Positions 16,095-19,027 of a stretch of 19,027 bases of DNA are shown here, in pieces (the stretch's first letter is position 1; each line of letters starts with the position of its first letter). Position numbers and translations under genes: made by a program. Source of the DNA: Chlamydiota bacterium. GTDB lineage: Bacteria; Chlamydiota; Chlamydiia; Chlamydiales; SM23-39. The stretch lies in contig JBEHXF010000039.1 of the NCBI GenBank assembly GCA_048498835.1, forward strand, positions 1 to 19,027, read 5' to 3'. The notes under the pieces were generated by a model that worked only from the letters and a program-made list of their open reading frames with translations, was not told the origin of the DNA and made no database searches.

Positions 16095-16459
16095 TGAACG
16101 AGCCCTTTTTCAAAACGCTCTTGCGCTTTCACGGTCATAGTCGCATAGGGAATCGCCTCTAGTCGTTTGATCGGGATCTCTTCGCCCGATAAATCGCAAA
16201 CGCCATAGGTGTCTTCTTCAATTTTCTCTAGTGCTCGGTCGATTTGGCGCAAGACGACGAATTCTTTATTGGTCACTTCGAGATTGATGTTCTTGACGAA
16301 ATCATCTGTCCCCTCATCAGCAGCATGTTGCGAATAACCCTTCGCTTCATCCGGAGAAGTGACCTCTTTTTTACTCCCTTCAAGAGCGCGCATCACTTGT
16401 TTACGTAATTCTTGCAAACGAGTTTTAAAGTGGGCAACGTCACTTTTCTTCAGGGGCAT
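16091..16459 (-). CDS. dksA: DksA/TraR family RNA polymerase-binding factor, chlamydial type
   Basis: Coiled coil with HAADEGTD tip, then IDRALEKI...YGVCDLSGEEIP..RLEAIPYA. Start ATG 16459 fits the GAGGA spacing (alternative 16465). Confidence 0.9.
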   Translation of the reverse strand: MPLKKSDVAHFKTRLQELRKQVMRALEGSKKEVTSPDEAKGYSQHAADEGTDDFVKNINLEVTNKEFVVLRQIDRALEKIEEDTYGVCDLSGEEIPIKRLEAIPYATMTVKAQERFEKGLVQ

Positions 16460-16949
16460 GGGCATGTTCCTCTTGTTCAAGTTCTTTTAGAGCTGCGCCT
16501 CCAGTTGGCGCAATCGACTGAATCGCTTCTACGAGTTCCTTAATATGCTTAAACCGCTTGTATACGCATGCAAAACGGATGTAAGCGACTACATCGATTG
16601 CAAGCAAACTCTGCAGGACAATCTCTCCGAGTTCTTGACTTCCGATCTCCCGAATCCCTTTTGCCAAAAGATCCGCCTTAATCTTATACGCCAACGCTCG
16701 TACTTGGTCATGACTCACTCGCGTGTGACGGCAAGCAGCGTCCAAACCATTGATCAATTTTTCCTGTAGAAAGTCCTCATAAGTGCCATCTCGCTTCTTA
16801 ACCTGTAGACTCAAATCGACTGTTTCAAAAGTCGTAAATCTACGCATGCATTGACCACACTCCCTTCTTCGCCGGATCGCATTGAGATCCGCAGCAAAAC
16901 GGGAATCGGTCACCTTAGAATCTTCGTGGTTGCAAAACGGACAGCGCAC
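16440..16949 (-). CDS. nrdR: Transcriptional repressor NrdR
   Basis: MRCPFC, V.DSR, IRRRREC..C..RFTTFE, ATP-cone V.KRDG, VAYIRFACVY. GTG start. Confidence 0.96.
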   Translation of the reverse strand: MRCPFCNHEDSKVTDSRFAADLNAIRRRRECGQCMRRFTTFETVDLSLQVKKRDGTYEDFLQEKLINGLDAACRHTRVSHDQVRALAYKIKADLLAKGIREIGSQELGEIVLQSLLAIDVVAYIRFACVYKRFKHIKELVEAIQSIAPTGGAALKELEQEEHAHAPEEK

Positions 16950-17484: not shown

Positions 17485-18081
17485 ATGATTAAAGTAACGC
17501 ACAATTTAAACGAACTAACAACCCACTTTAATTACAATCAACGAATCCTGCTAAATTCAATTGAAAAATTTAAATCAGCTGATGCAGGTGAAATATTTTT
17601 TGATAAGCAAGGACGCCAATATACAAAGTGGAATCCCTCTTCTCGGTTTCTTCAGATTTTTGCTAAAGCTGTAAACTTTTTTATTCAGCTCGCCAAAGAG
17701 GGATTTGGAGAGAAAACACGAATGTCGAATCGACAAGTGAACGTATTTCACTATCGACAACAAATTCTTGCAGACATGACCGAACTGATGAAGGACAGTT
17801 TGGAAGTACTCAAGACCGCTAACGAAGAATTCCCCCAAGAAATTTCTCTACTCAGCGGCCTTGGCCCTGTAAGCGTTCAGAAAAATTTATTAAAGCATCT
17901 AGAGGACTTTATTCTCAGAGATGCGCCAACAAAATTTGATAAGGTCCCATTCCGCTTTCAGCTCCATCGGCTCCAAGAGCAGGCTTTGAGTCTTATTCAT
18001 CAAATGCCCATCCGGCACGGAATGACGCCGGAATGGTTTGTTTCATCAAGAAAACGTGAAATTGAGCAATTAATAAAATAA
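17485..18081 (+). CDS. Hypothetical protein, paralog A of a tandem pair
   Basis: 198-aa ORF with AGGG RBS. Shares G.I..DK.GR.Y and NFFI...KEGF with the next ORF. Confidence 0.8.
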   Translation: MIKVTHNLNELTTHFNYNQRILLNSIEKFKSADAGEIFFDKQGRQYTKWNPSSRFLQIFAKAVNFFIQLAKEGFGEKTRMSNRQVNVFHYRQQILADMTELMKDSLEVLKTANEEFPQEISLLSGLGPVSVQKNLLKHLEDFILRDAPTKFDKVPFRFQLHRLQEQALSLIHQMPIRHGMTPEWFVSSRKREIEQLIK

Positions 18082-18109
18082 TCTTAATAATAAAATAGGG
18101 AATTTAATT

Positions 18110-18628
18110 ATGGGTTCAAAAATTAAAAATCACACATTTTATACAGATCACATTAAAATCAAATCGGAGATCGAAGCTCTCCAATCTGAAATAAAAGAAT
18201 TTGATCGAGTGACAGATGGCAACATCCATCTGGATAAACACGGTAGAGAATACTCTTTATTCCAAGGCCAAAACAAATTTACTAAGCTATTTGAGGGAGT
18301 CATTAATTTCTTCATTCGGGTGTATAAAGAGGGGTTTAATCAAGATCGAGCATTGAAAAGAGTGATTGATTATCAACAAAACATTCTAGATTCAATGGCA
18401 AAGAGAGTTCACACCTGTGTAGAAACCATGCATAGAGTCTACCGAAACTTCCCTCAAGATGCAGTCACCCATGAAATCTACAGCGCTAAGGGTATCATCA
18501 AAAACTTGATTGAACCTTTGAACAATTTATTAATTCATAATGATTTGAATCAGGAATTATTCAAAAAGAACTTTGATGAACTCGATGATTTTCATGACTT
18601 TGTATTGACCGAGTTAGCAATGAGATAA
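18110..18628 (+). CDS. Hypothetical protein, paralog B of a tandem pair
   Basis: 172-aa ORF with AGGGA RBS. Similar to paralog A along its length. Confidence 0.8.
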   Translation: MGSKIKNHTFYTDHIKIKSEIEALQSEIKEFDRVTDGNIHLDKHGREYSLFQGQNKFTKLFEGVINFFIRVYKEGFNQDRALKRVIDYQQNILDSMAKRVHTCVETMHRVYRNFPQDAVTHEIYSAKGIIKNLIEPLNNLLIHNDLNQELFKKNFDELDDFHDFVLTELAMR

Positions 18629-18654
18629 AAAACTTTAGGTTTAGGTGAGGTCGG

Positions 18655-18691
18655 ATGGCAATTTGCATAACGCAGGTTGCCATTTTTTTTT
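18655..18691 (+). terminator. Rho-independent terminator after the paralog pair
   Basis: ATGGCAATTTGC-ATAAC-GCAGGTTGCCAT (12 bp with two G.U pairs) followed by a T-run to 18691. Confidence 0.85.
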
Positions 18692-18696
18692 GGAAA

Positions 18697-19027
18697 GAAG
18701 CCGCATTGGCGGCTTCCGATCGCAGGTTTTCAAGTTTCGGAGGTGGCTGCCCCGCAGGGGCATGAGAAAAGGCCACACCTTTTCTCGCATGCGCTACTTA
18801 ACGTGCGCATGGGATGCCCTCGCGGATCCGGTTCGCGCCAGAGGCGCTTCACGATCAATCATCACGCAAGCCAAACTGTTGGCTTGCTCCTTTTCGATGC
18901 GAAAAGGATGATTGAACCCAGGCCGGCGGTCTCGCTCGGTTTTTCGAAACGAAAAACATCGAACTCAACTCGACTCCCACCTTCGGAAGCCGCATTTGCG
19001 GCTTCCGATCGCAGGTTTTCACGTTTC
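18697..19027 (+). repeat. 42-bp direct repeat (289-nt period) enclosing a densely structured non-coding element; candidate ncRNA or palindromic mobile repeat, truncated by the window edge
   Basis: 18697-18738 and 18986-19027 match at 40/42. Each begins with a GAAGCCGC/GCGGCTTC hairpin, and at least seven further stems plus a closing helix lie between them. Confidence 0.75.

Follow-up and report, generated by a model that had tools for sequence, protein, structure and literature searches.

A tRNA-linked repeat unit, probably a tiny mobile element, at the tRNA-Ser(GGA) locus of a Chlamydiota bacterium

The locus and the layout of the unit

The window analyzed here, a stretch of 19,027 nt from a Chlamydiota bacterium (GCA_048498835.1), is the complete contig C39, and it ends within a 42-nt direct repeat (18697-18738 and 18986-19027, 95% identical, period 289) that was overlooked when a stand-alone structured RNA was predicted at 18735-18988. 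Because the contig stops inside this repeat, the feature spans 18697-19027 and further. Judged by its sequence, the element is a tRNA-linked unit of 289 bp that follows tRNA-Ser(GGA) immediately and reads on the minus strand; a second unit begins after it, so that the window holds one full and one partial copy. The features of the locus, in window coordinates, are as follows.

16440..16949, minus: nrdR, the synteny anchor
17485..18081, plus: cargo ORF of 198 aa, low GC (39%), paralogue of the 172-aa ORF (27% identity, E 1e-12)
18110..18628, plus: orphan cargo ORF of 172 aa, low GC (34%), between the unit and nrdR
18653..18685, plus: terminator-like hairpin (consensus scan only)
18697..19027, minus: whole feature to the contig end, the 289-bp unit and the start of a second; the tRNA gene is outside the window (C48:1-79, minus)
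18697..18737, minus: truncated second unit, trailer and arm hairpin (from the direct repeat)
18738..18746, minus: putative direct copy, now decayed, of the 3' end of tRNA-Ser(GGA), with T-stem and shortened acceptor strand (from the family layout and relatives' tRNA ends)
18748..18825, minus: distal three-hairpin module, partly common to the tRNA-Ser(CGA), tRNA-Ser(TGA) and C18 units
18828..18852, minus: small hairpin module, also in the unit behind tRNA-Ser(TGA)
18855..18917, minus: nested three-way junction, in which a tRNA-Ser-like pseudo 3' end and its complement are accompanied by another copy of the arm hairpin (32.6 bits)
18918..18928, minus: GC-rich palindromic linker common to sister units
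18929..18969, minus: bulged T/A-tract hairpin module that covaries in the family
18969..18984, minus: antisense arm for the T-stem and T-loop of tRNA-Ser(GGA) (compared with the C48 tRNA; family test)
18985..19006, minus: conserved arm hairpin of 9 bp with a 4-nt loop, which in this copy is merged with the shortened acceptor-complement
19007..19027, minus: trailer after the tRNA 3' end, without a U-tract terminator (sequence inspection)

The boundaries originally proposed thus cut through the 289-bp repeat. The 3'-end copy in this unit is a 9-nt decayed remnant, the genuine tRNA 3' end falling in an assembly gap, and we infer that it pairs with the antisense arm to give what had been taken for the closing helix of an RNA. 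Although no tRNA hallmarks had been recognized, the element contains both sense and antisense pieces of a tRNA T-arm. Two ORFs that run over the element (18645-18911 and 18677-19027) were taken as chance frames in GC-rich repeat DNA. When compared by eye, the trailer at 19015-19026 (minus) matches the variable arm of tRNA-Ser(GGA) from G002, a genome of the same genus, at 12 of 12 nt. Separately, the genome carries a second dispersed family of modular, REP/ERIC-like palindromic repeats, none of them beside tRNAs (contigs C58, C66, C62, C69, C42, C13, C38, C36, C37, C24 and C40), one hairpin of which equals window positions 18989-19002 over 14 nt.

The host gene is missing among the 36 ARAGORN calls for this genome; it occupies positions 1-79 of contig C48 (minus strand) and is broken off just past the T-loop. 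A guessed tRNA-end pattern matched in none of 61 genomes, and the gene was placed through synteny. Among relatives' loci, taken from 30 of 61 matches of which one was that of the genome itself, tRNA-Ser(GGA) is no more than 1.5 kb away from nrdR in 16 of 29, with 14 on the nrdR strand, and C48 genes match those upstream of tRNA-Ser(GGA) in all five relatives tested. C39 and C48 do not overlap, so the join between them follows from this synteny, and additional units may be present in the gap. Units of this kind break short-read assemblies at tRNA genes, the C39/C48 interruption being an example.

Within the same genus the site is patchily occupied. In G001 and G003 tRNA-Ser(GGA) abuts nrdR with no unit between them, while G004, G010, G017 and G020 have both a unit and cargo at this position, and G074 has cargo without a unit. 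Neither cargo ORF of the window has a Pfam match, the one at 18110-18628 matches itself alone among 39 candidates of similar length, and the nrdR side of the cargo has no copy of the tRNA end (best 10/17). The hairpin at 18653-18685 would end plus-strand transcription of the cargo ahead of the unit. The paralogous cargo ORFs (17485-18628) have similar AT-rich upstream sequence with a 22-nt repeat. Copies of tRNA-Ser(GGA) with one or two acceptor-stem mismatches were seen at L053 (G005), L062 (G074), L064 (G002) and L026, possibly because their 3' ends have been swapped by insertion events.

Folding, covariation and strand

All ten stems named in the original prediction are present where it had placed them; eight are perfect Watson-Crick helices, and the closing helix and the stem at 18821-18837 contain two G.T pairs each on the plus strand. 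None of 200 shuffles folds as well as the stretch 18735-18988 on either strand (z -7.16 for plus, -6.47 for minus), and the minus strand of the whole 331 nt (18697-19027) gives z values of -6.96 as RNA and -9.05 as DNA. Perfect stems occupy 107 paired nt per 250 at the element, the genome mean over 77,895 windows being 8.1, which makes it the third-ranked non-overlapping peak of stem density in the genome; both denser peaks correspond to sister loci that follow tRNA-Ser genes. Consistent with the claim that the element belongs to no Rfam family, there are no matches at gathering score, and a search up to E 10 returned only five chance matches (best E 0.16). The longest match to the stretch in any relative covers about 96 of 388 query bases, and the entire 250 nt is kept nowhere.

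Covariation was assessed in an alignment of 32 copies, these being 38 candidates less six, with all copies from the genome itself among those dropped. Pairing is retained in 90.9% of 859 cells, compared with 72.4% in shuffled and 31-48% in slid controls, although these figures are overstated because the copies are related and were chosen by invariant core letters. The arm hairpin is paired in every cell, with 47 double changes and no G.U cell. The prediction of a selected structure stands, its stems being far beyond shuffles, covarying in relatives and without an Rfam family.

The proposal that selection acts on the plus-strand fold is not supported. Exact 12-mers that the window unit has in common with sister loci run in the minus-strand direction in seven of seven rows, none being inverted. 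Counted on the tRNA-sense strand, G.T and A.C cells number 15 vs 11 in the family and 3 vs 7 and 0 vs 5 in unit bodies, and point clearly to neither strand. In the family, A.G mismatches on this strand outnumber those of C.T by 37 to 10, which favors the transcribed strand. Neither strand energy nor loop type clearly separates DNA from RNA folding: the sense strand has the lower folding energy in 28-29 of 50 cases, and triloops make up 51 of 120 loops, the figures for a small control set of terminators being 8 of 26.

These observations bear on whether 18735-18988 might be an independent structured ncRNA made from the plus strand. The strong plus fold, its four G.T pairs and a small surplus of A.C over G.T in unit bodies, as read on the tRNA-sense strand, all agree with such an RNA. 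The minus strand, however, folds as well, the boundaries cross the 289-bp repeat, no relative conserves the whole 250 nt, the plus strand has a terminator-like site a short way upstream, and promoter-like sites occur at chance level. The reading is largely refuted and we regard it as very improbable; in place of a stand-alone ncRNA, the locus holds a repeat unit tied to a tRNA gene.

Sister units and the family across genomes

BLAST searches of the genome against itself place pieces of the unit on C20 (two places), C29, C18, C70, C5 and C23, and inspection of the 36 ARAGORN RNA genes shows a unit directly downstream of seven: tRNA-Ser(GCT, TGA, CGA), tRNA-Leu(CAA, TAG), tRNA-Lys and tmRNA. Their order is constant, with the 3' end of the gene followed by a short trailer, an antisense arm and hairpin modules, after which the 3' end is in many cases repeated directly. 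Sister arms complement the acceptor strand and T-arm, interrupted by the insert A-[9-bp hairpin]-G, and the hairpin modules are held in common but vary in order. The nested module at 18855-18917 lies in either orientation within host units of other genomes, where its two strands change together. With 15 places in the genome matched by the family model at E<=0.01, the suggestion that the element might be a repeat of the MITE kind comes near the truth, except that a classical MITE, with terminal inverted repeats and a short target duplication at scattered sites, does not fit: copies cluster at tRNA and tmRNA ends and carry a 17-nt repeat anchored in the T-loop. Elsewhere in this genome (C15:28999-29073 and downstream), the 3' half of tRNA-Thr(CGT), from the anticodon loop on, is repeated twice in tandem behind the gene, with a palindrome before each copy.

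A model made without copies from the genome itself finds the window on the minus strand at 76 bits (E 8e-18) and has matches in 47 of 103 genomes of the bacterial family. The exact 25-nt pattern of the arm hairpin occurs in at least 120 places in GTDB genomes, and the 80 matches examined come, by their titles, mostly from Patescibacteria but also from Chlamydiae, Elusimicrobia, Verrucomicrobia and Proteobacteria. A tRNA or tmRNA gene precedes the match on the same strand within 450 nt in 52 of the 80 and within 100 nt in 47, two of the calls being doubtful permuted tmRNAs. In the host phylum, a looser pattern gives 122 distinct matches, 66 of them behind a tRNA or tmRNA; all nine pairs of the arm hairpin are perfect in 64 of these 66, compared with 29 of the other 56. 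The long arm pattern has no match in viral contigs, and blastn against plasmids and phages likewise found none. Among the examined loci are those of Cupriavidus isolates (L130, L134), cultured proteobacteria with the same arm hairpin behind tRNA-Ser(GGA) that are possible laboratory models.

The arm follows the tRNA that it stands behind. For the 50 GTDB loci with a readable T-loop, the mean arm score is 11.0 against the unit's own tRNA and 7.7±0.2 when tRNAs are swapped, and a second test (n=53) gave 11.7 and 7.8, respectively. Even within a single isoacceptor, the arm fits its own gene end better in 108 of 130 pairs, another end in 8 and neither in 14, these pairs being non-independent. A downstream direct repeat is present at 25 of the 50 GTDB loci and at none of 50 controls. 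Among 53 first units it is found in 29, running for about 17 nt from T-loop position 57, and is absent or decayed in 24. Identity to the gene is 0.03, 0 and 0.03 at positions 54-56 and 0.76-1.0 from 57 onward; the repeat was scored from 57 only, but the below-chance identity at 54-56 is not caused by that choice. Tandem arrays reach approximately four units in G020, and such arrays are seen in a relative assembled in six contigs.

One explanation of such an arm is that it acts in RNA. A co-transcribed arm that competes with the cloverleaf could gate maturation or decay of the tRNA, with a small RNA being cut out at the downstream copy, as has been proposed for RrB of E. coli. Units are co-oriented with their tRNA without exception, the excess of A.G mismatches favors the transcribed strand, the window copy has no terminator ahead of its arm, and E. 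coli repeats behind 5S genes are transcribed and processed according to the available text of PMC8144298. Moreover, a thermodynamic folding model, which ignores tertiary structure, modification and co-transcriptional processing, predicts that at 42 of 51 loci the arm captures the 3' half of the tRNA, mean pairing within the tRNA dropping from 0.90 alone to 0.15 with the arm. Patchy occupancy of the same site within one genus is difficult to reconcile with this role, however, as are tandem arrays, copies left behind cargo islands far from intact genes, an arm hairpin with no G.U cell at all, modules that flip orientation, and a T-run that precedes the arm in 35 of 53 trailers. On balance we find a cis-acting trailer doubtful; if the arm does act on precursor RNA, it would represent an unrecognized control of tRNA maturation.

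Known systems and the case for a mobile element

Repeats linked to stable RNA genes (TLRs) have been known in E. coli since 1978 (Egan & Landy 1978; Rudd 1999, as cited in PMC8144298). They are found immediately downstream of tRNA or rRNA genes, end in a repeat of the last 18-19 bp of that gene, and include RtT/rttR (Rfam RF00391) and rrA/B/F; they are described as non-coding, 100-370 bp long and present in one to five copies, three of them give transcripts that bind CsrA and Hfq, and their function is, in the available text, still to be established (PMC8144298). The window family is likewise non-coding, situated behind tRNA genes, single or tandem, and in 29 of 53 first units terminated by a copy of about 17 nt of the gene's 3' end, of which the window unit has just the 9-nt decayed remnant. 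The window unit itself lies immediately downstream of tRNA-Ser(GGA), given the C39-C48 join inferred from synteny, and with one full and one partial copy it falls within the copy number of E. coli TLRs. The tyrT repeats of E. coli also restart within the T-loop (16/20 match) and hold a partial antisense T-arm (10/12; acceptor strand 5/8). In the window family, in contrast, the antisense arm covers the acceptor strand as well and is split by a conserved 9-bp hairpin, modules are nested and invertible, and tmRNA is also targeted. The RtT model finds neither the window at gathering score nor any of 19 related loci at E<=1, whereas the E. coli control scores 133-138 bits, and the family model has no match at the E. 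coli locus. By these sequence comparisons, the element fits the broad definition of a TLR and resembles one in its apparent workings, but it is not an RtT member.

The T-loop is also a known sublocation for integration by integrases, as set out in the accessible parts of bioRxiv 10.1101/2020.11.02.365908 and PMC4383910. Like tyrosine-integrase islands and their integrase-less derivatives, the units would insert in a tRNA gene and leave the displaced 3' fragment as a direct repeat, but they are gene-less and the islands have no antisense arm. The cargo of the window does not have the makings of such an island either, with no Pfam domain in its ORFs and no tRNA-end copy on the nrdR side. At the tmRNA of G020, three cargo junctions duplicate from position 53, whereas seven unit junctions begin at about 57 (one more being degenerate); the two positions at the same gene imply that islands and units take different routes and that units are not the attachment sites of islands. 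This difference also weakened the idea that units are attC-like cassette borders. Islands displace older units at this gene.

Integron attC, CTXphi attP, the ends of IS200/IS605 elements and REP/REPIN sequences are folded single-stranded DNA sites, characterized by long imperfect hairpins with fixed extrahelical features, and a unit target set by base pairing would parallel the guides of IS200/IS605. Sites of attC type border cassettes, however, and the units do not bound cargo; the Y1 transposase (PF01797) associated with IS200/IS605 and REP/REPIN was not found in the 97%-complete genome of the host. TATA-ended dispersed elements that have one module in common with the units were seen in G221 only: at L225, L238 and L284-L287, seven elements of about 250 bp with terminal inverted repeats carry the same nested module away from tRNAs, and their sequences suggest module exchange between a MITE-like family and tRNA-linked units. 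The available text of PMC9897764, which deals with tRNA fragments from islands and CRISPR, does not mention such units. No description of the window family was found in a literature search for which subscription papers were mostly out of scope; the supplements of PMC8144298 may show structures of TLRs.

Hairpin modules are swapped between loci of one genome. Unit bodies from the same genome but behind different tRNAs are more alike (38.9) than those that come from different genomes but follow the same tRNA (30.5, p 0.03), and the latter differ little from unrelated pairs (28.5, p 0.24), with kinship inflating the significance of both comparisons. In this comparison of 50 units, the nearest neighbor is from the same genome in 11 cases, behind the same tRNA in two, and neither in 18. 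Taken with the empty and filled sites, the tandem arrays and the fixed junction, this likeness within genomes points to units that spread within genomes by way of a single-strand fold. The element is probably a tiny mobile element and not a stand-alone RNA gene.

The explanation that we consider best, and to which we would give about an even chance, is a non-autonomous tRNA-linked element, folded in its single-stranded form and inserting at the T-loops of tRNAs. In single-stranded DNA the arm would fold back onto the tRNA tail to create a double-stranded site at a three-way junction, where a hypothetical recombinase or nuclease supplied in trans would cut between T-loop positions 56 and 57. 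The unit would be inserted or amplified at the cut with duplication of positions 57-73, could be removed by recombination between the direct copies, and would have its arm kept matched to the tRNA by inverted-repeat correction.

A mobilizer for such an element has not come to light. No recombinase or mobilizing gene is present among 23 ORFs around two arrays, no integron integrase was found, reverse transcriptase is not found in the 97%-complete genome, and no circular or excised form of a unit was seen. The genome does encode three tyrosine recombinases. At L247 (C3:21.9-23.2 kb), a 422-aa tyrosine integrase lies directly behind tRNA-Asn and has relatives in 54 of 103 genomes; this local family of tRNA-island integrases was rejected as the mobilizer for lack of association (25/47 vs 29/56 genomes, p 1.0).

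These negative searches would be expected if the units were an enzyme-free by-product, that is, hairpin-rich DNA behind highly transcribed tRNA genes that expands through template switching, unequal recombination and gene conversion, with inverted-repeat correction keeping the arms matched and with neither a dedicated function nor a mobilizer. Palindrome correction and conversion yield wobble-free perfect stems and mosaic modules, both of which are observed, and the second palindromic repeat family of the genome has a hairpin in common with the window copy. A specific factor is nevertheless indicated by the same arm hairpin, in the same register, across many phyla and tRNA types, by the junction fixed at position 57, and by a three-way junction whose covariation persists where the module has no tRNA next to it; together these point to recognition by such a factor. 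We judge an enzyme-free origin to be unlikely.

The mobile-element explanation has a bolder form, which we advance only tentatively. The units might be self-programming elements that cross phyla, their arm being rewritten for each target so as to act as an internal guide for a putative trans-acting enzyme that cuts tRNA and tmRNA genes at 56/57; a single gene-less scaffold could then colonize most tRNA genes, and the tRNA-linked repeats of E. coli would be relics. If true, an insertion enzyme guided by base pairing would constitute a new programmable recombination system. The junction at position 57, the arm that tracks its tRNA, the covarying three-way junction, and the empty and filled alleles in one genus provide handles on the question of TLRs.

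Islands at tRNA genes were encountered in other settings. At L276 (G100) and L254 (G017), islands of 2-3 kb duplicate tRNA-Tyr from the anticodon loop, with a unit behind both tRNA halves, and they offer a possible route for horizontal spread of the units. Stacked integrase-less cargo islands occur at L060 (G020 tmRNA, 15.5 kb) and L059 (tRNA-Thr); every full T-loop repeat in them is preceded by a conserved motif, and their cargo includes GNAT, LysR, AraC/GyrI-like, P450, DUF2442 and BrnT proteins.
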